A DNA stretch of 64,000 nucleotides from Acidimicrobiia bacterium (GTDB taxonomy: Bacteria; Actinomycetota; Acidimicrobiia; Spongiisociales; UBA5794), in contig JASJCF010000005.1 in assembly GCA_030066265.1 (NCBI GenBank), positions 414 through 64,413 on the forward strand, given 5' to 3'. The notes beneath the pieces were generated by a model. The model was not told where the DNA came from and made no database searches. It was given only the letters and a program-made list of their open reading frames with translations. Below, piece by piece: positions 2,290 to 25,110 of this stretch; the first letter of the stretch is position 1, and each line of letters opens with the position of its first letter. The position numbers were made by a program, and so were the translations under genes.

Positions 2290-2378
2290 CAGCTCCTCAG
2301 CTTCTTGGCTTCTCGGCTCCTCGGCTCCTTCGCTCCTCAGCTCCTCAGCTCCTCAGCTCCTCAGCTCCTCAGCTCCTC
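2290..2378. repeat. Octamer tandem repeat (CAGCTCCT)n with degenerate leading units
   Basis: cagctcctcagcttcttggcttctcggctcctcggctccttcgctcct followed by six perfect cagctcct units. It abuts the stop codon (2377-2379) of the large minus-strand gene. Confidence 0.95.
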
Positions 2379-5300
2379 ACAGTCCGAGGGCTCGGGCGAG
2401 GAAGGCTGCGATCTGGTATCGAGTGATGCGGTTCTCCGGGCAGAACTCCGTGTTGGCGGGCGGGTTGCAGCCGCGTGTCACGCCTGCCGTGGCGAGCTTG
2501 TCGATGTCGTTCTCGAAGATCGAGTCGTCGTCGTCGATGAACAAGTCTCCCCCACCATTGTCCACGTAGCCGAAGGCCCGGACGAAGAACGCCGCCGCCT
2601 GCCCGCGTGTGAGGAACTGATCGGGACAGAACCTCGTGTTCGCCGGCGGGTTGCAGCCCCGGGTGATGCCGGACGCGTAGAGCGCCTCGATGTCGTTCTC
2701 GAAGATCGAGTCGTCGTCATCGGTGAACGGATTCCCCGAACCCGGTGCGAGGTTGAGAGCACGATTCATCAGTGCTGCGAACTGCCCTCGCGTGACGTTG
2801 CTACTCCCGCAGTACCGGTCGTTGAGGGGGGGATTGCACCCGCGGGTGATGTCGGCCAGCGCAATGGCGTTGACATCCCGCTGGAAGATCGAGGCGTTGT
2901 CGTCGAAGAAGAAGTCAACGACCTCGACCGTCCGGAACGCCACGGCGAGATTCCCGCCGGAGTCCACGACCGAGTACTGAACGCGATACGAACCGGGCTC
3001 GGACGTGTCGACGTCCGTTGCATCGATGGTCAACAACGGTGTCAGATCGCCGTCCTGGCCATCGGTTGCCGTGGCACCGAGCTCGACATATGGGTTGCCG
3101 AAAGCGATCCGTTGCGGGTTCGGACCCGTCAACAGGATGAACGGCACATCGTCGGAGGCCACCGCCACGACTCGCCACACCGTCTCCGCCGCGTTGCCGG
3201 CGTCATCGCTGACGTCGTAGGTCACGAGGTAGCGTCCCGCCCGAGCATCGTCCACACCGGTCGAATCGGCAACGACGGACGCCGAAACGTCGCCGTCCAC
3301 GTCGTCCGTTGCGGTTGCCCCGAGCTCGGCGTACATCGCACCGGGGCCGACAACCTGGGTGGCCGGACCGATCAGACTGATCACCGGTGGGGTGACGTCC
3401 ACCACCTGCACCGTCCGCGTGAGCGTCGGTGCGGGATTGCCGTCGGAGTCGGAGACGTCGTAGGTGACGTCGTAGCTCCCGACTTTCGACGTGTTGACAT
3501 CTGAGTCATCGATGTCCGTCACGTTGATCGAGCCGTCCTTGTCATCTGCGGCATCTGCGCCGTACTCGACATACGTGCCGCCAACAGGGATCACGTATGG
3601 ATCCGGACCGGCGAGCGCCATCACGGGACCAGCCGAGCCGACGACGAGGACGGCACGCCCTTCACGAGCGATATTGCCCGCAGCATCGGTCGCCGTGTAC
3701 GTGACGGTGTATCCGCCTGCAACCGAGGTGTTGACCGATGAGTTGTTCACGACCAGGTTCGGCGATGGATCGATGTCATCCGTCACCGAGGCCCCCGGTT
3801 CGTTGTACGAGGCCCCCACGTCGAGCACCACCGGATTGTTGCCGCTCAGCGTGATGCCCGGCGGTGTCGTGTCGACGACCGGTGCGGCCACCACCTGCAC
3901 GGTGCGGGTCACCTGCGGTGCGGCCCCGGATCCGTTCGATACGTCGTACGTGACCAGGTAGATACCGGTCGTCGACGTATCGACCGCGTCGCCTCCAACG
4001 CTGATCGTGCCGGAGATATCGCCGCTCCCGTCGGCTGCTGCAGCACCTGGATCGGCGTAAAGATCGCCCTGCCTGATCACCTGTGGGTTTGCACCCTTCA
4101 ATGCCATCACCGGCGGTCCGGCTACGGGAGCCACGAGCACGGCACGTCCATCGGCCGAGCTGTTGCCCGAGCTGTCGGATGCCGAGAAGGCAACCGTGTA
4201 GGCGCCAGCCGCCGAGGTATTGACGACAGAGTCGTCGAACGAAACCGCGACCGAGCCGTCGACGTTGTCCAGCGCCGTGGCACCGGCATCGACGTACGTG
4301 GGATCACCGATCGCAAGCAGGACAGGATTGACGCCATTCAGCGTGATCACCGGTGGCGTGGTATCCGGTGATGCCGGTGAGGCGACCACCTGCACCGTAC
4401 GGGTGACCTGCGGGGCTGCGTTGCCGTCGTTGTCAGTGACGTTGTACGTGACCGAATAGGTTCCGATGGTCGATGCATTGACGGTGTCTCCCCCCACCAC
4501 GATCGACGGGGTGAGGTTGCCGTCCTTCTCGTCCCGGGCCGACGCTCCCAGATCGGTGTAGGCACCCCCTACGGTGATGACCTGGGGGTTGGCGCCCTTC
4601 AGCGCCAGGGATGGCCCACCGGAGCCGACCACGAGCACGGTCCGCTGTTTCTCGACGGCCTCGTTGCCAGCGGCATCTTCCACGTTGTAGGTGATGCGGT
4701 AGCCGCCCGCAACGTTGGTGTTGACGTTCGAGTCGACATCGATGCTGCCGGTGATGTTCCCGTCGGTGTCATCGGACGCCGTCGCCCCTGGGTCGACGAA
4801 CGGATCGCCGACATCGAGCACGATCGATGGGGAGCCCGCGAGGCTGATGATCGGCCGCGTCACGTCGACCACATTCACCGTCCGGGTCGCCGTCCCCCTG
4901 TTGCTCGAACTATCGAGCACGGAATACGTGACCGAATAGCTCCCGAGGAGCGCAGTGTTCACCGCACCTGCGTTGATGACGATCGAGCCAGTGACGTCAC
5001 CATCAACGTTGTCGTTCGCAACCGCCCCTCGCTCCACGTAGGCCCCTCCGAGAGGCACCACGAGCGGGTTGGGGCCGATGAGGTCGATCACGGGTGGGAG
5101 CGCATCGCGTACCGAGAACGTGCGAGTCTCAGGCAACGACGGCTGGCTTGCGGTGTCGATGGCGCGGACGGAGAGGACATAGGGCTGCGCTGACGGCAGC
5201 GTCGAGCCCAAGTCGAAGGTGTACGACCAGTTCGTCGAGGCACCACCCGGTGACGACAGTGAGGCGTTGAGGCTCGCCAGTGTGGGCTGGAACGACGTGC

Positions 5301-6705
5301 CGTTCCAGAACCGGCCGGTCACCTGATCCTGGATCGAGAGAAGGACTTCGGTGACGCCCGTTGCATCCGCAGCCGTGCCGGCGATGACGAGTGGCGAGTC
5401 TGCGATGGCTCCGTTCGGCGGTGTCGTGATCGCCACCGTGGGCGGCGCATCGGACGACGGGGTGATGTCGAGGTAGCGCAGGAGGGCTTCGGTGAAGAAG
5501 TAGTCCGCATAGATCGTGGAGACGTCGATCTCGGAGTTGCGGGGACGGTTCCCCGTCACGTGCAGCAGCAGCCCGGCGCTGTTGGATCCGTTCGAGCGAT
5601 ACGTCGACGACATGAGCGTCTCGAGGATGTCGCTCGCGGCGTCGAAGTACCGATCCGCCTCGGCTCCGGAGGTCAGGGTTGCGAGACGCAGCAGGCCCGC
5701 GGTCGCTATCGCCGCAGCCGAGCTGTCCTTGTCGCGCAGGCTGCTTCCGCCGGCGTCGAAGTCCCACCAGGGGATGTTGTCGGCGGGGAGGTTGTCGAGG
5801 AAGTAGTCAGCCAGATCCCTCGCCGCATTGAGGTTCGAGGCATCACCCGTGCGCTCGGCGAGCATCGCATAGCCGTAGATGCCCCAGGCTTGACCGCGCG
5901 CCCACGTGGTCTCGTCGCCCGCACCCGCATGCGTGCCTCGCTCGATGACGGCGCCGGTCGACGGGTTGAAGTCGACGAGGTGGTACGTGGACCCGTTGTT
6001 GCGAATGTGCTCGTCCGCTGTCACCTCTGCGTGACTGTCGACCATGCCGTTCCACGACGAGGTCTCGGATCCGTTGGTGGTCAGCTCGGCACCGTTGAGC
6101 AGGAGTTCGAGGTTGACCACGTTGTCGATGATCACCGGGAACGACCAGCTGCCAAAGCTCCACGATCGCGTGGCACCGACGTCGGGGTCGTAGCGAGTGG
6201 CGAGCGAGCGAGCCGCTGTCAGCAGGGTGTTGCGATAGGTGGTCTTGCCCGTCAGCTCGTATGCCAGCGATGCGGGGATGCCGACCATGAAACCGACATC
6301 GTGGGTGTCGGTTCGAGTCGCCTGTGATGACAGCGACGTGCTCCACGAGGTTGCCGCCGAGAGGAAGTCCGCCTGAGCCGTGTAGCGGTACATCTGCCAC
6401 AGGAGGGCTGGGAAGAACCCGCTCGTCCAGTCGGAGGCGGACACGGTGTCCCACTTCCCGTCTGATCCGGTCGACCGGGGGAACGACGTCGTCGACGGTA
6501 GATCGTCGATCGTGTCGCGGACCTGGTCCGCCACGAACTCCAGGGTGTCCCTCACCTCGGTCCGCAACTCGCCTGAGAACGCTTCAGCGCGCGACGCGCC
6601 ACGTGGGGCGCCGACGAGCGGCAGCATGGCAGCCGCCATGACCAGGACGACGAGAAGGGTTATCCGAGGTCTCCAACCCAGTCGTCCACCACCCTGGCTC
6701 CGCAT
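2377..6705 (-). CDS. Secreted multidomain protein: GH88-like unsaturated glucuronyl hydrolase + Ig-like region + 9 DUF5011/HYR-like repeats + 3 C-terminal Cys-pair (SLH-like) repeats
   Basis: Start set at ATG 6705 (SD GGAGG 5 nt upstream; signal peptide ...LPLVGAPRGASRAEA). GH88-type motifs present: WTSGFFPALLW, THDVGFM, WARGQAWGIYGY. There are nine ~72-aa repeats of the type G.NP....G..Y.D.GA.A.D..DG..T......V.T...G.Y.VTY.V.D..GN. Three C-terminal repeats read DD.SIFE.DI..L...GITRGCNPP.N..FCP....TRGQ.AAF..RA. Confidence 0.85.
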   Translation of the reverse strand: MRSQGGGRLGWRPRITLLVVLVMAAAMLPLVGAPRGASRAEAFSGELRTEVRDTLEFVADQVRDTIDDLPSTTSFPRSTGSDGKWDTVSASDWTSGFFPALLWQMYRYTAQADFLSAATSWSTSLSSQATRTDTHDVGFMVGIPASLAYELTGKTTYRNTLLTAARSLATRYDPDVGATRSWSFGSWSFPVIIDNVVNLELLLNGAELTTNGSETSSWNGMVDSHAEVTADEHIRNNGSTYHLVDFNPSTGAVIERGTHAGAGDETTWARGQAWGIYGYAMLAERTGDASNLNAARDLADYFLDNLPADNIPWWDFDAGGSSLRDKDSSAAAIATAGLLRLATLTSGAEADRYFDAASDILETLMSSTYRSNGSNSAGLLLHVTGNRPRNSEIDVSTIYADYFFTEALLRYLDITPSSDAPPTVAITTPPNGAIADSPLVIAGTAADATGVTEVLLSIQDQVTGRFWNGTSFQPTLASLNASLSSPGGASTNWSYTFDLGSTLPSAQPYVLSVRAIDTASQPSLPETRTFSVRDALPPVIDLIGPNPLVVPLGGAYVERGAVANDNVDGDVTGSIVINAGAVNTALLGSYSVTYSVLDSSSNRGTATRTVNVVDVTRPIISLAGSPSIVLDVGDPFVDPGATASDDTDGNITGSIDVDSNVNTNVAGGYRITYNVEDAAGNEAVEKQRTVLVVGSGGPSLALKGANPQVITVGGAYTDLGASARDEKDGNLTPSIVVGGDTVNASTIGTYSVTYNVTDNDGNAAPQVTRTVQVVASPASPDTTPPVITLNGVNPVLLAIGDPTYVDAGATALDNVDGSVAVSFDDSVVNTSAAGAYTVAFSASDSSGNSSADGRAVLVAPVAGPPVMALKGANPQVIRQGDLYADPGAAAADGSGDISGTISVGGDAVDTSTTGIYLVTYDVSNGSGAAPQVTRTVQVVAAPVVDTTPPGITLSGNNPVVLDVGASYNEPGASVTDDIDPSPNLVVNNSSVNTSVAGGYTVTYTATDAAGNIAREGRAVLVVGSAGPVMALAGPDPYVIPVGGTYVEYGADAADDKDGSINVTDIDDSDVNTSKVGSYDVTYDVSDSDGNPAPTLTRTVQVVDVTPPVISLIGPATQVVGPGAMYAELGATATDDVDGDVSASVVADSTGVDDARAGRYLVTYDVSDDAGNAAETVWRVVAVASDDVPFILLTGPNPQRIAFGNPYVELGATATDGQDGDLTPLLTIDATDVDTSEPGSYRVQYSVVDSGGNLAVAFRTVEVVDFFFDDNASIFQRDVNAIALADITRGCNPPLNDRYCGSSNVTRGQFAALMNRALNLAPGSGNPFTDDDDSIFENDIEALYASGITRGCNPPANTRFCPDQFLTRGQAAAFFVRAFGYVDNGGGDLFIDDDDSIFENDIDKLATAGVTRGCNPPANTEFCPENRITRYQIAAFLARALGL

Positions 6706-6972
6706 GATGCCCTCCGTATCCGCGCGGCCACCCAAGCCGTACACCACCAAGTGAAGTGACTCGCCTCGGTAGTGTCAATCCGCCCCCTCACCTGTGTTGG
6801 TTCGCTTTTCGCGAGCTGCCGACCCCATGCGGCTTCTCAGGATCCGACAAGAGGAGTCATCTGCGGAGCACTGGGTCTGCGAAGGGGCGCAGCGGCCCGT
6901 TTCGGGCCTCGGATGCGGACGAAGCTCAGGGCTACACGAAGTCGGCGCGCCTCGCGGGATTGACCGGAAGGC

Positions 6973-13546: not shown

Positions 13547-14353
13547 GTGACACCCGACGAGAACACTGACGCAACGGTTCGAAATCCCGGTGCGGTGCCC
13601 AGGTGGGTCGCCCTCGTGCTCCTGGCCGCGGTGCTCGTTGCCGGCTTCATGGCCGTCAGCTTCTCCTCGGATGCCGAGGACGCTCGCGCACAGGCCGACC
13701 TCCTCAAAGACGGCGTCGACCGGTCGAGCCTCCCGCTCGATCAAGCGGTTGCGCTTGCGGAACTCGCCCACGCACAGAGCGCCCCACTGCCCGCCTCCGA
13801 ACTCCACGACCATCATCACGATCATGGAGCCGAGCACACGGAGATGTCGCCCGAGGAGCAAGCCCTCTTCGAGGAGCAATGGCAGACGGCGGTCGAAGCG
13901 GCCGAAGGGCACGCCACCATGAAGCAGCTCGAGGAGTTGGGCTTCGTACGTTCATCCGGTGAGACCGACGGCGCAGGCGAGCATTGGACCAACTGGGAGC
14001 TCGTCGACCTCCCGTTCGACCCGGCACGCCCGTCACAGGTTCTGGTCGACGAGCTCGTCTTCGGTCAGGGACCCGAGCTGATCGCATTCTCGTACTGGGT
14101 CAGGTCGGACGGACCCCCGGAGGGATTCGCTGGCGATCTCGACGTGTGGCATCGGCACCGGGGCGTGTGCTTCGTCGACGGAATGATCATGGACGAGAAC
14201 CGCCAACCAGAAGAATGCGACGGCGACTGGTTCAATGGCGAGAACCTCTGGATGGTCCATGCCTGGGTCGTTCCGGGCGTCGAGAACGTCTACGGAGACT
14301 TCCACAACGTCAATCCCCTGCTCTGTGAGCGCGCATGCGGTCTGGAGGACTGA
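13547..14353 (+). CDS. Membrane-anchored His-rich hypothetical protein
   Basis: Start set at GTG 13547 (AGGAG 8 nt upstream). One N-terminal TM segment (WVALVLLAAVLVAGFMAV). His cluster HDHHHDHGAEH plus WHRHRGVCF and MVHAWV. No family recognised. Its end overlaps the copCD start by 19 nt. Confidence 0.6.
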   Translation: MTPDENTDATVRNPGAVPRWVALVLLAAVLVAGFMAVSFSSDAEDARAQADLLKDGVDRSSLPLDQAVALAELAHAQSAPLPASELHDHHHDHGAEHTEMSPEEQALFEEQWQTAVEAAEGHATMKQLEELGFVRSSGETDGAGEHWTNWELVDLPFDPARPSQVLVDELVFGQGPELIAFSYWVRSDGPPEGFAGDLDVWHRHRGVCFVDGMIMDENRQPEECDGDWFNGENLWMVHAWVVPGVENVYGDFHNVNPLLCERACGLED

Positions 14354-15960
14354 CCACGGGCCGCGGCGCAGCCGGCGAGCGGAACAGTCGGCGGTGGGAG
14401 CGGCTGACCATTGCAGCCGGCGCACTGATGATCTCGTTCACGTGGTTGCTGTTCTCGACGCCGGCACTCGCGCATACCGACCTCGCTGCGACGCGACCCG
14501 GCGATGGAGAGCTCTTGACCGACCCAGTCGCGCGCATCGAGCTCGAGTTCACCGGCGGGATCGCCGCCGAAGCGATCTCCATTCGACTGCTGGACGGTGA
14601 CGGGGGCGCCATCGCCGTCACGACGACGCTCGTCTCCGAGGAGCTGGTGGTCGTGGAGCCGCAGCTCGACCTCGAAGGCGGCCGGTACGCGGTGTTGTGG
14701 TCGGCGCGATCCGCCAGCGACGGGCATGAGGTCTCCGGATCGTTCGGTTTCGAGGTCGTCATTCCAGGATCGGGCGCCGACGCCGCACCGGTCCCGGAGG
14801 TCGAGTCCGCAGCGGAGGACGAGGTTGCGGCCGAGAACCCTCCGGCGGTCGATGACGCAGCCTCGGAGACCAGCGGGGACATCGTTGCGCCAGCAGCTGC
14901 TCCCGTCGCTGAACGACCCGCCGCAACGCCAACCGACACCGTCCCGTTGGCGGCAGCGGGTGAAGATGGTGGCGATGCGGTCGCAGCGTTCCTCGGATGG
15001 CTCGGCCGCTGGGTCTCGATGGCCGGAGCCATCATCGGGGTGGGAGCCATCGCTTTCGCGGGGACGTCGCTTGTCGGTACCGCAGGCGAAGTTCGAAGGG
15101 CGGCGTCGTGGATCCGCTTCGGCGGGATGCTCGTCTTGGCGGGATCGGTGATCGAGCTGACCGCAGCGGCGACCAGCGCGGGTCACGGCCTGCTGGCCGC
15201 GCTCATGCCCTGGACCTGGATCGACGTCCTGCCCGCGGCCCAGGCGTATGCGATGGTCCTCCGGATCGCCGGCGCCATTGCGATGCTCCAGAGCCCGCGC
15301 CTCGTTCGCACCTCGCCAGGCACGCCGGTGTCTGATCCACTCCGAGACGACGAGACGCAAGCGGCCGACCGGATGGAGGGTTCCACCGTTGCGACCGCGA
15401 CTCGAGCGGAGCCGCTGGGGAACCGCCTCGAGATCCAGCACGAGTGGGTGGCCCTCGCAGGCGCCACCATGGTGATCGGCTCCTTCGCCCTCGATGGGCA
15501 CACCGCCGACGCAGGCCTGATCGGGCGACTTGCGTCCATGGCGCACGTTCTCGCAGCCGGGGTCTGGGCCGGCGGCCTGGTGGTGATGGCTGACCTCCTG
15601 CTCCGTCGCCGTCGCACCTCGAGACGCACTGAAGCCGCTTCCGTAGCCATCCGGTTCTCCCGCGTTGCATCCGCAGCGCTCGTCCTCACGGCGATCGCAG
15701 GTGGAGCCCTCGCATGGTCACTCGTCGACGAACCCTCCGAGCTGTGGTCGGGTGCGTGGGGCCGCTCGCTCGCTGTCAAGCTGGCGTTCGTGGCGGCGGC
15801 TGCGGCGATCGGCGGCTACAACCACTTCCGGGTCGTCCCGCGCCTCGACCAGCCCGGGACGCATGCTTCCGATACGCTGCGCCGTACGGTGGCTATCGAG
15901 TCGTTGCTCATCATGGCCGTTCTCGCTGCCACGGCAGTCCTCGTGACCGCCGCCCCGTGA
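14335..15960 (+). CDS. CopC-CopD fusion copper-resistance/uptake protein (YcnJ-like)
   Basis: A signal peptide ending ALA is followed by HTDLAATRPGDGELL...GRYAVLWSARSASDGHEVSGSFGFEV (CopC fold with the mature N-terminal His). A polytopic CopD-like membrane domain follows. Confidence 0.85.
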   Translation: MRSGGLTTGRGAAGERNSRRWERLTIAAGALMISFTWLLFSTPALAHTDLAATRPGDGELLTDPVARIELEFTGGIAAEAISIRLLDGDGGAIAVTTTLVSEELVVVEPQLDLEGGRYAVLWSARSASDGHEVSGSFGFEVVIPGSGADAAPVPEVESAAEDEVAAENPPAVDDAASETSGDIVAPAAAPVAERPAATPTDTVPLAAAGEDGGDAVAAFLGWLGRWVSMAGAIIGVGAIAFAGTSLVGTAGEVRRAASWIRFGGMLVLAGSVIELTAAATSAGHGLLAALMPWTWIDVLPAAQAYAMVLRIAGAIAMLQSPRLVRTSPGTPVSDPLRDDETQAADRMEGSTVATATRAEPLGNRLEIQHEWVALAGATMVIGSFALDGHTADAGLIGRLASMAHVLAAGVWAGGLVVMADLLLRRRRTSRRTEAASVAIRFSRVASAALVLTAIAGGALAWSLVDEPSELWSGAWGRSLAVKLAFVAAAAAIGGYNHFRVVPRLDQPGTHASDTLRRTVAIESLLIMAVLAATAVLVTAAP

Positions 15961-15961
15961 C

Positions 15962-16022
15962 GGGAGTCGAGGGGGGACACTCGGAGCTTCTCAGCTCCTC
16001 AGCTTCTCGGCTCCTCAGCCCC
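15962..16022. repeat. STR-family member
   Basis: gggagtcgagggggg...ggagcttctcagctcctcagcttctcggctcctcagcc, lying between the convergent copCD and aapP ends. Confidence 0.8.
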
Positions 16023-16832
16023 CTAGAGAATCTGGCTGAGGAACAGCTTCGTGCGGTCGTGCTGCGGGTTCGTGAAGAAGTGCTCGGGCGTGCCTTCCTC
16101 CACGATCGTGCCGTAGTCGAAGAACATGACCCGGTCGGCGACCTCTCGGGCGAAGCCCATCTCGTGGGTGACGACCATCATCGTCATGCCCCCGAGAGCG
16201 AGTTCTTTCATCACGTCGAGCACTTCCTTGATCATCTCCGGGTCGAGCGCCGACGTCGGCTCGTCGAACAGCATGATCTTCGGCTTCATCGCAAGCGACC
16301 GTGCGATGGCAACCCGCTGCTGCTGACCGCCCGAGAGCTGGCCGGGATACTTGTCGGCCTGCTCGGGGATCCCGACCCGCTCGAGCAGCTCCATGGCGTA
16401 GTTCTCGGCTTCGTCCTTCGGCTGCTTGCGGACCCACTGTGGAGCGAGCGTGATGTTGTCCATCACCGTGAGATGCGGGAAGAGATTGAACTGCTGGAAG
16501 ACCATCCCGACCTCGGAACGGATCTTCTCGATGTTCTTGATGTCGTTCGTGAGCTCGATGCCGTCAACGATGATCGTGCCTTCTTGGTGCGCCTCGAGGC
16601 GATTGATGCAGCGGATATAGGTCGACTTGCCAGACCCCGACGGACCGATGACCACGACCACCTCGCGCTCGCGCACAGTTGCGGTCACGCCCTTGAGCGC
16701 CTGGAAATCGCCGAACCACTTCTTCACATCCTCCGTGACGACGATCGGATCACCGAGCGTCCGCGACGCCGCTTGGCCGCCGGCTGCGGCGTCGGTGTCC
16801 GGTGCTGACTGATCGCTGAATTCGTTGTCCAT
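16023..16832 (-). CDS. aapP: Amino-acid ABC transporter ATP-binding protein
   Basis: Walker [10 protein letters not shown], signature [13 protein letters not shown], Walker [17 protein letters not shown]-family ATPase. Confidence 0.9.
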
Positions 16833-18760: not shown

Positions 18761-20341
18761 TCAGCGCTCCACCAGTTGCATACGGCGGTTGAAGTAGTTC
18801 ACGATGGCCGAGATGATCAGGCTGCCCGTCAGGAAGAACGCCATCCACACACTGACGACGGGAAGCGACTGGCCGGTCTGGTTGATGATGGTGGTGCCCA
18901 CCGCCACGATGTCTGCGTACGCAACGGCGAGTCCCAGGGACGTGTTCTTGAAGAGGTTGAGGTACTGGTTCCCCAGTGGCGGGAGGATGATGCGGAATGC
19001 CTGCGGGAGGATGATCTGGCGCAGGTACTGACTGCGCTTCAGGCCGACGGCTTGCGCCGCCTCGGTCTGACCCTTCGGCACGGCCAGGATGCCGCCACGG
19101 ACGATCTCGGCGATGAATGCTGCGGTGTAGAGCGTCACACCGGTCCAGATGGCGAAGAAGGGCACCGTGAGGACCATGCCGGTCTCGCCGTACTGTGGGA
19201 TCTCGGCCGTGCCCCTGAGAATGACTGCGGCCTTCTCGAATACCAGCGGGCCTCCCGAACGTTGACCCTCGACCACCGTGTTGTAGTTCTCGGTCGAGAA
19301 GCTGCCGGCGAGCCATCCGAAGAAGTTCGCGATTCCATCGAGGATCAACTCGGCGACCGTCAGCTGCTCCCCGGAGATGGTGCGGATTTCGAATCCGCTC
19401 ACGACGAACGCGAGCAGGGCCACGACGATGCCGGAGAACCCGACGAAGATGACCCGGAACCAATCGTCGTCGGTCATCTTCCCGAACCCCGCCGGTGTTC
19501 GCCGCGACTCGAAGAAGTTGCGAATCCACAGTGCCGCACCGGCGATGGCGGCGATCGCCACCACGATCGGCACGATGACAGCCGGCAGGTCACGGATCAG
19601 GTCCGACACCCAGTCGAACACCGGCTCGAGCCAACCGAAGATCGGCCACGCGAACCACCCGACGACTGCGAAGAGCACGACCACGGCGAAGGCGTACCGT
19701 CCCCCGTGGCCGGGGTTCCCAGTCTCTTCTTGGTATCGCATACGGCGTTTCGAAACCCAGCGGCCGACAGCAATGCCGACCACGACGAAGATCAGCCAGG
19801 GCCAGAATCCGCCATCGGGGAAGATCCATGCGAAAGCGAAGCCCTTGTTCGAGGCCTTGAACCAATACTCCCCGACGTCGTCCGCCGTGAGTTCCGGGAG
19901 CCCGATGGCCAGGGCCGACCAGAAGAAGATCTGGACGAGGAGGGGGATGTTGCGGATCGTCTCGATGTAGACGACAGCAATCCGGTTGACGATCCAGTTG
20001 CTCGACAGCCGCGCGATGCCGATGATCGTGCCGAGAATCGTGGCGACGATGATGCCCGAGATGGCCACGCGGAGCGTGTTCATCATGCCGACGGTGAGTG
20101 CCCGAACGCCGGAGTCCGGGCTCGTGTCGATCCCCTCTCGAATCTGCACGCCGGTGGGATCAGAGAGCCAATCCCAACCGAAGGAGACATTGGAGGCGGT
20201 GAAGTTGGATGACGCCGTCTGGGCCAAGGTCACGAACACCACGATGACCGCGATCAGCACGAGGATCTGCGCACCCCACTTGAGGACTGCCGCGTTGCGC
20301 CACAGGGGCGTGCGCTGGTGCTGTCGAACCTCGACGGTCAT
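18761..20341 (-). CDS. aapQ: Amino-acid ABC transporter permease
   Basis: Contains YIETIRNIPLLVQIFFW and ...EAAQAVGLKRSQYLRQIILPQAFRIILPPLGNQYLNLFKNTSL. SD gaggaagg lies upstream. Its stop is 1 nt from the aapM start. Confidence 0.85.
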   Translation of the reverse strand: MTVEVRQHQRTPLWRNAAVLKWGAQILVLIAVIVVFVTLAQTASSNFTASNVSFGWDWLSDPTGVQIREGIDTSPDSGVRALTVGMMNTLRVAISGIIVATILGTIIGIARLSSNWIVNRIAVVYIETIRNIPLLVQIFFWSALAIGLPELTADDVGEYWFKASNKGFAFAWIFPDGGFWPWLIFVVVGIAVGRWVSKRRMRYQEETGNPGHGGRYAFAVVVLFAVVGWFAWPIFGWLEPVFDWVSDLIRDLPAVIVPIVVAIAAIAGAALWIRNFFESRRTPAGFGKMTDDDWFRVIFVGFSGIVVALLAFVVSGFEIRTISGEQLTVAELILDGIANFFGWLAGSFSTENYNTVVEGQRSGGPLVFEKAAVILRGTAEIPQYGETGMVLTVPFFAIWTGVTLYTAAFIAEIVRGGILAVPKGQTEAAQAVGLKRSQYLRQIILPQAFRIILPPLGNQYLNLFKNTSLGLAVAYADIVAVGTTIINQTGQSLPVVSVWMAFFLTGSLIISAIVNYFNRRMQLVER

Positions 20342-20431
20342 GTGCCTTCCTCAGCCGCGGGCCTCCATCCGCCCGCTGCGGAGGCACCATAGACGGAAGC
20401 CCCCCCGCTTTGCAGGGAAAATGCTGCGCCT

Positions 20432-20688
20432 TCAGCTCTGAGCGGTGAGCGGTAAGCCAATGGGCCGAGGAGCCGGGAGTGAGTCTCGAGTCTCGAGTCT
20501 CGAGTCTCGAGTTCTGAGCCTTGAGCCTTGAGCCAAGAAGCTCAGGAGCTGAGGAGCTGGGAGTGAGTCTCGAGTCCCGAGTTCTGAGCCTTGAGCCACG
20601 AAACTGAGGAGCTGAGAAGCCAGGGAGCTGAGGAGCTGGCAGGGAGTCTCGAGTCCCGAGTCCCGAGTCTCGAGTTCCTCGATCAGAC
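20432..20688. repeat. Composite STR array (heptamer/octamer units in ~80-nt higher-order modules)
   Basis: (gagtctc)n / gagtccc / gagttct, then (gagcctt)n, then gagccaagaa, then (gctgagga)n. This series occurs about 2.5 times and fills most of the aapQ / four-helix-bundle intergenic region. Confidence 0.95.
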
Positions 20689-20727
20689 CCCTTCCTTGCA
20701 ACGGCAAGCTGCGGTACGACTCGCCTC

Positions 20728-21087
20728 ATGCAGAACTTCAAGAAGCTGAGTGTCTGGAGAAAGGCCATGGAGGCCTCACGGGAGTGCTACGCAGTGACCG
20801 CCGGATTCCCAGCCGCAGAGCGGTTCGGTCTTCAGGCCCAGATGCGGCGGGCCGCTGTTTCGATTCCCAGCAATATCGCTGAGGGCAGCGGCCGCAGATC
20901 AAGTAAAGACTTCGTGCGCTTCCTGAGAATCGCCTACGGATCCTCTTGTGAACTCGAAACCCAGGCTCTGCTCGCGATCAGCCTCGAGTTCGGCGACGAA
21001 GCCGAGCTCCAGAAACTGCTGGCGGCGGTTGACGAGGTCCAGCGGATGCTGAGCACCCTCATCGACAGAGTGACCGGTGCGAGCTGA
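20728..21087 (+). CDS. Four-helix-bundle protein (23S rRNA intervening-sequence protein / Avd family)
   Basis: 119 aa. MQNFKKLSVWRKAMEASRECY...FPAAERFGLQAQMRRAAVSIPSNIAEGSGRRSSKDFVRFLRIAYGSSCELETQ is the family signature. It lies on the strand opposite to the surrounding aap genes. Confidence 0.9.
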   Translation: MQNFKKLSVWRKAMEASRECYAVTAGFPAAERFGLQAQMRRAAVSIPSNIAEGSGRRSSKDFVRFLRIAYGSSCELETQALLAISLEFGDEAELQKLLAAVDEVQRMLSTLIDRVTGAS

Positions 21088-21090
21088 ACT

Positions 21091-21145
21091 TCGAGCACGA
21101 GAACTCGGGACTCGAGACTCGGGACTCGAGACTCGGGACTCGAAG
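21091..21145. repeat. STR array in inverted orientation relative to 20432-20688
   Basis: tcgagcacgagaactcgggactcgagactcgggactcgagactcgggactcgaag, which is the reverse complement of a (gagtccc/gagtctc)n array. Confidence 0.9.
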
Positions 21146-21157
21146 CCTCCAAGACGA

Positions 21158-21189
21158 GAAGAAGGGCCGCCCGAGGGCGGCCCTTCTTT
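21158..21189. terminator. Bidirectional intrinsic terminator
   Basis: gaagaagggccgcc-cgag-ggcggcccttcttt. A 13-14 bp GC-rich stem with T-rich flanks on both strands, lying between the convergent four-helix-bundle gene and aapJ. Confidence 0.75.
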
Positions 21190-21209
21190 CGAGTTGCTAC
21201 TGGCTTCGC

Positions 21210-25110
<3,901 letters not shown>

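Follow-up and report, generated by a model that had tools for sequence, protein, structure and literature searches.

What is a gene for a small four-helix-bundle (4HB) protein, bracketed by two tandem-repeat arrays that are reverse complements of each other, doing between two genes of an ABC transporter, and does it belong to that locus or come and go as an element of its own? The question is raised by an 868-bp insert (20342-21209), composed of a 5' array, a 4HB gene and a 3' array, that separates aapJ from aapQ in contig JASJCF010000005.1 of an Acidimicrobiia bacterium. The stretch analyzed (64,000 nt, hereafter the window) makes up the part of the source genome that was covered. An earlier interpretation made from the letters alone (the sequence-only reading) had likened the inverted arrays to the ends of a small non-autonomous element. 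Comparing the insert with related loci, we found that at the aapJ-aapQ gap array, gene and array are gained, lost, inverted and replaced together as one block, and that the same architecture is the rule for the 4HB protein family (S23p; PF05635, 23S_rRNA_IVP; TIGR02436) across bacterial phyla. We favor, with a probability of roughly 0.6, the reading that the insert is a self-contained selfish cassette of the intervening-sequence (IVS) type lying outside rRNA, with the arrays as its cis-acting ends.

Anatomy of the insert

A 257-bp array, a plus-strand gene for a 119-aa 4HB protein and a reverse-complement array, the layout described in the sequence-only reading, were recovered with essentially the same boundaries:

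20432-20688, plus strand: 5' composite repeat array, 257 bp, identified with Tandem Repeats Finder and as repeat families, enriched over chance
20692-20727, plus strand: promoter-like segment from the 5' array to the start codon (TTCCTT at 20692-20697, 17 nt, TACGACT at 20715-20721, 6 nt, ATG)
20728-21087, plus strand: 4HB gene, 119 aa (PF05635 and TIGR02436 profile matches, homologues, PDB 2GSC, AlphaFold2 model)
21098-21143, plus strand: 3' array, (CGAGACT/CGGGACT) x6.4, reverse complement of the upstream GAGTCYC blocks

The 5' array combines TGAGCGG (2.7 copies), GAGTCTC (4.6 copies), TGAGCCT (2.9 copies), AGCTGAGG-type octamers and GAGTCCC (4.6 copies), arranged as about three copies of a higher-order unit of 63-79 bp; its octamer is GAGGAGCT. 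Only the three GAGTCYC blocks (20481-20512, 20565-20581 and 20644-20675) have complementary partners downstream, and the TGAGCSN and GAGGAGCT blocks lack them. The best inverted repeats between the two arrays span 35 nt at 94% and 34 nt at 94% identity. With up to two mismatches allowed, the GAGTCYC dimer pattern GAGTCYCGAGTCYCGAG is matched 16 times in the window, where 0.26 matches would be expected by chance, with 15 of the matches inside the insert. The open reading frames (ORFs) within about 5 kb are aapP-, aapM-, aapQ- and aapJ-like genes together with purA and purD, in agreement with the earlier statement that the insert has no transposase, reverse transcriptase (RT) or rRNA gene nearby. 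A search of 19500-22500 returned no rRNA match, and the insert does not lie in helix 25 or 45 of a 23S rRNA gene; no Rfam family matches it either.

Gain, loss, inversion and replacement at the aapJ-aapQ gap

To compare the gap, we used 24 related loci from a metagenome scan with AapQ, with all junctions oriented from aapJ to aapQ. Individual loci carry L numbers, and the following states were distinguished:

Window, L001, L002: 4HB cassette antisense to the aap genes, unit GAGYCYC
L085: 4HB cassette antisense to the aap genes, unit TGAGCYT
L086, L087: 4HB cassette antisense to the aap genes, unit GTGAGTT
L089: 4HB cassette antisense to the aap genes, unit CCGTTTT
L090: 4HB cassette in sense with the aap genes, unit GCACAGA, with a remnant of an L089-type CGGAAAA array on the aapQ side
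L091: inverted arrays without a gene, AGTTCAC / TGTGAAC
L105: solo array, GCACAGA x3
L092, L100: hairpin-like remnant in a 194-bp gap
L088, L101: neither gene nor clear arrays, in gaps of 260 bp and 202 bp
L094-L096, L098, L099: empty gap of 114-128 bp, the aapJ terminator being followed directly by a TATGGT-type motif (not evident in L099)
L102-L104: empty gap of ~100 bp, in more distant relatives

The empty-site comparison proposed in the sequence-only reading therefore yields present, absent, inverted and decayed states among the relatives. In the AapQ tree, the empty sites form a separate clade, and the different states are mixed within the occupied clades. The conservation of AapQ and that of the 4HB protein are uncoupled: AapQ is 99% identical between L002 and L087 against 49% for their 4HB proteins, and the corresponding values are 86% against 52% for L001 and L085, 74% against 70% for L001 and L002, and 83% against 54% for L089 and L090, whose cassettes lie in opposite orientation. 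Judged by these protein identities, the cassette genes at the gap are not orthologues. The sequence-only reading had taken the same gene at the same site without repeats as the pattern that would indicate ancestral synteny; what relatives carry at this site are 4HB genes with repeats, and these genes are non-orthologous.

The borders of the exchanged unit were defined by comparing L002 with L087. On the aapJ side, the two flanks are 93.4% identical over 1844 nt, and on the aapQ side 98.0% identical over 1612 nt, in both cases up to the outer edge of the array. The interiors (577 and 509 bp) are unrelated, save for a 105-bp stretch of the ORF core with 77% identity. Because the identity stops at the outer array edges, the replaceable unit is exactly array-gene-array. 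An assembly artefact is an unlikely source of the L087 form, since L086, from a separate sample, is 99.94% identical to L087. At the L002/L087 borders, we saw no target-site duplication. The proposal that the inverted arrays are the ends of a discrete element is thus borne out by the replacement of array, gene and array as one block between near-identical backgrounds. Its further qualification as non-autonomous is not established, since the element bears an intact, conserved ORF.

These observations bear directly on the possibility that the 4HB gene is a vertically inherited resident of the aap locus, for instance a transporter regulator or accessory, around which microsatellites arose in place. 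In at least seven contigs of related Acidimicrobiia, a 4HB gene does fill this gap, GAGYCYC units are common to the window, L001 and L002, and two 4HB genes surround a related transporter next to purA in L003 and L004. Yet the 4HB and AapQ trees disagree, as the L002/L087 pair illustrates; the orientation is reversed in L090; an AapQ clade has empty sites; gene-less gaps (L101, L088, L091 and L092/L100) lie within or beside occupied clades; and the same architecture recurs in unrelated contexts such as fadB/fadA, nrdB/nrdA and many others. We regard an ancestral resident as very improbable and largely refuted.

In L003 and L004, one of the two cassettes lies just after the ATPase gene. At 1886-1927 of L003, a 13-codon remnant that corresponds to the signal peptide of the binding protein in the window adjoins the downstream array of a 4HB cassette, and the solute-binding gene of L003 appears, from this remnant, to have been deleted beside the cassette. 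A short contig joint (20675->21098) that skips the ORF in two DNA runs was considered as an extra allele and set aside as ambiguous: its depth does not fit, only 33 nt support it on one side, and it could be an assembly artefact because the inverted arrays share canonical k-mers.

The array-gene-array architecture across the 4HB family

In the first relatives fetched, every 4HB gene lay between a heptamer array and the reverse complement of that array, with units CAGAGGA and YACCGTC in the two L003 copies and GAGYCYC in L001 and L002. For a broader view, 80 loci (L005-L084; one genome per species) were fetched via the family alignment using a single conserved peptide pattern, S[IV]PSNIAEG, as the best 80 of at least ~600 matches; they span Bacteroidota, Acidobacteriota, Planctomycetota, the candidate-phyla radiation, Clostridia, Proteobacteria and Actinomycetota. 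Gene boundaries in the fetched loci derive from tblastn, which makes gene-to-array distances approximate, and the orientation of neighbors was assigned by longest-ORF heuristics. The flank analysis comprised 85 usable 4HB loci with 250-bp flanks, and mismatched pairs of upstream and downstream flanks served as controls.

The two flanks of one gene proved far more complementary than flanks drawn from different genes: the inverted-repeat score had a median of 16 for own pairs against 8 for mismatched pairs (Mann-Whitney p 1e-36), and own pairs exceeded the 95th percentile of the control in 85% of the 85 loci. Strong flanking tandem arrays had a period of 7 (78 arrays) or 8 (7 arrays) and no other. 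The density of period-7 arrays was 1.90 per kb up to 250 bp from the ORF and 0.097 per kb elsewhere in the same loci, a 20-fold difference. The unit sequence varies from locus to locus, and the two sides of one gene stay complementary to each other, unlike those of other loci. Arrays and gene travel together: unit similarity tracks protein similarity, with pairs of loci that share an identical unit averaging 65% protein identity against ~43% (Mantel p ~0.0015). The same arrangement is found on plasmids of Nostocales (cyanobacteria), for example (GGGAGTA)n...(TCCCTAC)n around a 4HB gene that sits between nrdB and nrdA in antisense orientation.

The arrays also have a polarity relative to the gene. 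Read in sense, G outnumbers C in the 5' arm of 51 loci, against 6 with the reverse (p 6e-10); the composition of this arm is G 30% and C 13%, and that of the 3' arm C 29% and G 14%. Of 59 units, 26 contain the trinucleotide AGT when read in sense and 3 when read in antisense. In principle, the same polarity could mark Rho-loading or insulator sites, whose outward transcripts, C-rich and G-poor, would be terminated and the neighboring genes protected, the inverted symmetry being a by-product; the promoter-like motif carried by the cassette itself would suit such a role. Against this stand the genomic contexts, in which most cassettes lie in sense within co-directional gene strings and termination would have polar effects on the host genes downstream, and a 7-nt periodicity is not known to be a requirement of Rho utilization (rut) sites. 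Rho loading or insulation is a decidedly improbable explanation of the arrays.

The contexts themselves are strongly biased. Co-directionality with both neighbors was observed for 53 of 66 cassettes, against five that lie antisense between co-directional neighbors (binomial p 3.5e-11). Median gaps between the 4HB gene and its neighbors are only ~84 and ~40 bp (L005-L084). Given these short distances and the shared orientation, most copies are likely co-transcribed in sense with host genes. An rRNA context was found in none of the 20 loci tested for it. Cassettes are usually wedged inside gene strings, such as fadB-4HB-fadA in L115-L121; P0075 was always found between fadB and fadA and provided no evidence of transposition. 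We also considered the heptamers as a source of stop codons in all three frames and dropped the idea as too weak, with a stop present in 22 of 43 upstream units against ~35% expected.

Arrays without a 4HB gene

The TGAGCCN and GAGGAGCT repeat classes of the insert recur in the window at 2085-2124, 2290-2379 and 15985-16019, all in gaps without a 4HB gene:

2085-2379: (TGAGCCA) x5.7 and (CAGCTCCT) x11 arrays around a 165-bp spacer, in a convergent intergenic region without a 4HB gene
15985-16019: solo octamer array, (AGCTYCTC) x4.4, directly downstream of the aapP-like ABC ATPase gene

Inverted array pairs 50-170 bp apart and lacking a gene were likewise found in L021, L054 and L091, and hmmsearch --max detected no 4HB remnant in the gene-less pairs, the window's 2085-2379 pair included. 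Across the 80 loci, 37 period-7 arrays lie far from any 4HB gene. In the source metagenome (runs X1-X3), array words of 20440-20695 and 21080-21143 reach 10-50 times the depth of flanking single-copy DNA, which applies to the arrays and not to whole cassettes. Since this depth is accompanied by many different adjoining sequences, the same heptamer arrays must be present at many loci in the sediment community. Published surveys tell of similar abundance. Xanthomonas campestris has 186 GGGAATC-type arrays, some of them inverted pairs, and Nostoc has abundant GGGGAYT arrays, in both cases of unknown function (PMC4692102); heptanucleotide repeats have been reported to be the most abundant long class of simple sequence repeats (SSRs) in many genomes, as cited in PMC4679880.

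All of this would fit an alternative in which the heptamer and octamer arrays are SSRs that arise independently by slippage genome-wide, share permissive gaps with 4HB genes and are not element ends. It leaves several results unaccounted for: the 20-fold enrichment of arrays beside the ORF, flanks that are complementary within a locus and not between loci, the polarity of the arrays relative to the gene, the joint replacement of arrays and gene with breakpoints at the outer array edges, and the agreement of unit similarity with protein similarity. We therefore consider independent SSRs an unlikely explanation. The solo arrays may descend from cassettes, as decayed or non-autonomous forms, or they may form an independent class of SSRs that cassettes exploit.

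Several details of the gene-less arrays deserve mention. The spacer within 2085-2379 holds a small hairpin. ORF 1731-2087 ends on the TGA of the first repeat unit, which serves as its stop codon, and the stop codon of the 1457-aa ORF 2377-6750 (minus strand) lies in the last unit of the CAGCTCCT array; judged by eye from its translation, the latter protein has many tandem Ig-like repeats and C-terminal units resembling S-layer-homology domains. The 15985-16019 array is placed between the ABC ATPase gene 16023-16832 (minus strand) and the convergent ORF 14335-15960, and the equivalent position after the homologous ATPase gene in L003 and L004 is occupied by a complete 4HB cassette.

A member of the 23S intervening-sequence protein family

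The 119-aa ORF is a member of the TIGR02436/PF05635 4HB (S23p) family by every test applied, in accordance with its earlier assignment to the four-helix-bundle family of 23S IVSs. It matches PF05635 with an E-value of 1.9e-37 and 128.2 bits (cut-off 33.8) and TIGR02436, 'four helix bundle protein', with 121.9 bits (cut-off 24). The AlphaFold2 model consists of four helices with a predicted local distance difference test score (pLDDT) of 96.4. Structure comparison with Foldseek and superposition gave template-modeling (TM) scores of 0.94 to 2GSC, 0.79 to 2RLD (BT_0352) and 0.79 to 4DWL. The S-I-P-S-N-I-A-E-G motif is present, and S45, S48, N49, I50, E52 and G53 are invariant in alignment A1. 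The family is very large, with at least 7321 homologues at E<=1e-3, and has been represented by crystal structures since 2006. Among the matches listed, the closest homologues are 63-70% identical, and those that carry source names are labeled as Acidimicrobiia metagenome-assembled genomes. Among solved structures, XCC0516 of Xanthomonas campestris (PDB 2GSC, E 1e-24) comes closest; it has been described as a homopentamer (PMC4990558).

The sequence-only reading had also attached the label Avd to the gene, after the accessory protein of diversity-generating retroelements (DGRs). Of this label, only the shared fold stood: the TM score of 0.79 reflects similarity to bAvd (PDB 4DWL), and some homologues also match PF22296 (bAvd). 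Identity to bAvd is 12%, tblastn of the 4HB protein against 50,697 phage records gave no match, and the DGR partners are absent, with neither an RT nor a pair of template repeat and variable repeat (TR/VR) adjacent to the insert and no RT in the syntenic relatives. That the gene encodes an Avd-type accessory protein of a DGR is scarcely tenable, and we excluded this assignment at the present locus. The PADLOC search for defense systems likewise returned no match.

A second 4HB allele was observed in runs X1 and X2, with nine substitutions in 143 nt (20736-20878), five of them at third codon positions. This allele has a depth similar to the reference's, which points to two co-existing strains.

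Expression of the cassette gene and effect on the aap genes

The host features on either side of the cassette are as follows:

18761-20341, minus strand: aapQ-side neighbor, BPD_transp_1 ABC permease (profile match)
20386-20414, minus strand: aapQ promoter-like motif, a host feature outside the cassette, with -10-like TATGGT (reverse complement of 20386-20391) and -35-like TGCAAA (reverse complement of 20409-20414) separated by a 17-nt spacer
21159-21188: aapJ terminator hairpin GAAGGGCCGCCC...GGGCGGCCCTTC, a host feature, perfect 14-nt inverted repeat
21210-22586, minus strand: aapJ-side neighbor, SBP_bac_3 (family-3) solute-binding protein (profile match)

The terminator hairpin lies directly after aapJ in all relatives, empty sites included. 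The element GTCTATGGTGCC (window 20383-20394, minus strand), which contains the -10-like TATGGT, is kept upstream of aapQ at occupied and empty junctions alike. Informative junctions in relatives with at least 67% AapQ identity start with the terminator hairpin and end with GTCTATGGTGCC or a close variant before aapQ. As both features flank the empty gaps too, aapJ and aapQMP were already separated before the insert arrived, and the cassette sits in a transcriptionally quiet space between a pre-existing terminator and a pre-existing promoter-like motif. The sequence-only reading had regarded it as unavoidable that the insertion either uncouples aapJ from aapQMP or supplies a promoter within the repeats; terminator and motif are already in place at empty gaps of 114-128 bp, which removes the need for either. 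We infer from its conservation and position that GTCTATGGTGCC acts as the aapQ promoter. The element is retained in most relatives with AapQ identity of at least 67% and has no Rfam match; besides the -10 reading, another kind of leader element is also possible.

Alignment A2 of nine Acidimicrobiia cassettes revealed invariant TT, TA and T positions at a fixed distance from the start codon: the TT belongs to a TTGAnn-like -35 element and the TA....T to a (TG)nTAnnnnT -10-like element, and the start codon follows after 5-7 nt. Such spacing fits a leaderless mRNA, a frequent type in Actinobacteria, and the window's 4HB gene probably has a transcript of this type, made from a promoter of its own. 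A consensus promoter and terminator scan of 20250-21300 found nothing, its rules being of the E. coli type and the sequence that of a high-GC actinobacterium. The terminator hairpin at 21159-21188 probably also ends the convergent 4HB transcript. Lying antisense to the aap genes and shielded by the aapJ terminator, the window cassette probably has a small effect on aap expression.

A model with the arrays as cis-acting ends

The insert has the anatomy of an IVS, its inverted repeats surrounding the ORF and being predicted to form a stem. In the predicted RNA folds of both strands, the 3' array pairs with GAGTCYC blocks and encloses the ORF, with minimum free energies of -375.7 (z -8.0) and -354.2 (z -4.9) for the two strands. 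Under the cassette reading, the arrays would serve as the cis-acting ends of the element. In transcripts that cross it, they would pair as a double-stranded RNA stem of at least 30 bp enclosing the ORF, and the host RNase III would, by analogy with 23S IVSs, clip the cassette from host RNA. Such clipping would make the cassette tolerable inside operons and rRNA, and would explain both this tolerance and the bias toward the sense orientation. Since neither the polarity nor the AGT core is needed for a mere stem, an additional, oriented recognition is suggested, most simply by the 4HB oligomer, for which the oriented AGT-core heptads would probably form a binding platform. Movement of the DNA may depend on a trans-acting enzyme of the host or of an element.

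A number of observations weigh against this reading. The clean swap rests on one pair of backgrounds, L002 and L087, with the L087 side seen in two samples. Neither a target-site duplication nor a recombinase was found, nor a second copy of one cassette at a different site. Many arrays lack a 4HB gene or a remnant of one and may have a life of their own. With respect to the RNA, the 5' array lies upstream of the promoter-like motif, so that a 4HB mRNA started there would lack the 5' arm, and no RNA run covers the 4HB gene, the one metatranscriptome with coverage reaching aapJ only. A test based on G.U wobble pairs revealed no strand-specific RNA signature (62 vs 64). Comparison of the two arms detected no mirrored order of variant units (12 loci, p 0.16), for which reason selection for a precise stem is not demonstrated.

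A broader proposal, which we put forward tentatively and regard as doubtful, is that 4HB genes and their inverted AGT-core arrays form an unrecognized class of transposase-less mobile elements that has spread across bacteria. The oligomeric 4HB protein would bind one heptad per subunit and recognize the ends for mobility or RNA processing, gene-less pairs of arrays and solo arrays would be non-autonomous or decayed progeny, and the class would be the source of both the long-noted heptanucleotide repeat excess of bacteria, such as cyanobacterial STRRs and GGGAATC repeats, and the ORF-bearing 23S IVSs.

Relationship to known systems

ORF-bearing 23S IVSs have been suspected of mobility since the early 1990s. 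The IVSs of Leptospira, Coxiella burnetii, Brucella, Xanthomonas and Haemophilus share with the window copy an S23p/PF05635 ORF within stem-forming inverted repeats and, in Coxiella, heptamers. In the C. burnetii 23S IVS, the S23p ORF lies on the rRNA sense strand between terminal inverted repeats that form a 28-bp stem; two to three tandem GACAGAT heptamers, strain-variable in copy number, precede the ORF, and RNase III excises the IVS with a cut in the stem at the first repeat (PMC4990558). Unlike these, the window copy occupies an ABC-transporter gap, not rRNA, and is antisense to the host genes; its arrays are much longer and composite, it has its own promoter-like motif, and RNase III processing is known for rRNA copies only. 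The window copy is thus a 23S IVS in anatomy but not in location.

MITEs (miniature transposable elements with inverted repeats) and small transposons with subterminal arrays resemble the cassette in their inverted ends, in polymorphism of presence, absence and replacement, and in having short derivatives without a gene. The cassette differs in that it has no transposase in the window neighborhood and no visible target-site duplication, and in that its ends are tandem 7-mers, in place of one unique terminal inverted repeat, and differ between copies even in near-identical genomes. Avd, a pentameric protein with a role in binding nucleic acid and RT, shares with the 4HB protein the four-helix-bundle fold and, with 2GSC, the reported assembly; the lack of an RT, of a TR/VR pair and of a detected phage homologue, besides the low identity, sets the cassette apart.

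Like the heptanucleotide repeats known as short tandemly repeated repetitive (STRR) sequences in cyanobacteria, GGGAATC in Xanthomonas, GGGGAYT in Nostoc and TAACTGA in Beggiatoaceae, the window arrays are intergenic tandem 7-nt units whose copy number varies between relatives. Some of the known repeats also form inverted pairs (PMC4692102), a Xanthomonas array abuts XCC0516, and the 4HB genes of Nostocales plasmids are flanked by such repeats. In contrast to the cassette arrays, they have been treated as SSRs and mostly lack an adjacent 4HB gene. While IVSs, the S23p family and heptamer SSRs were already known, the family-wide heptad-array architecture and the swapping of cassettes appear to be new: no paper stating either was found in a literature coverage that is incomplete, so that an earlier description is possible.

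The findings connect the S23p family, the suspected-mobile 23S IVSs and the abundance of heptanucleotide repeats, and the cassette may account in part for how common 7-base tandem repeats are among bacterial genomes. Annotators gain a rule for recognizing cassettes, possibly with fewer false calls of repeat arrays or CRISPR-like arrays. A figure legend in PMC10910872, taken by itself, could reflect biology, or 4HB-adjacent arrays that were taken for CRISPR-like arrays. The 4HB family is not mentioned in PMC4692102 or in PMC4679880. Repeat 15 in the supplementary table of PMC4692102 (GGGAATCGGGAGTGGAGAATCGGGAATC, a GGGAATC array) overlaps the annotated start of XCC0516.

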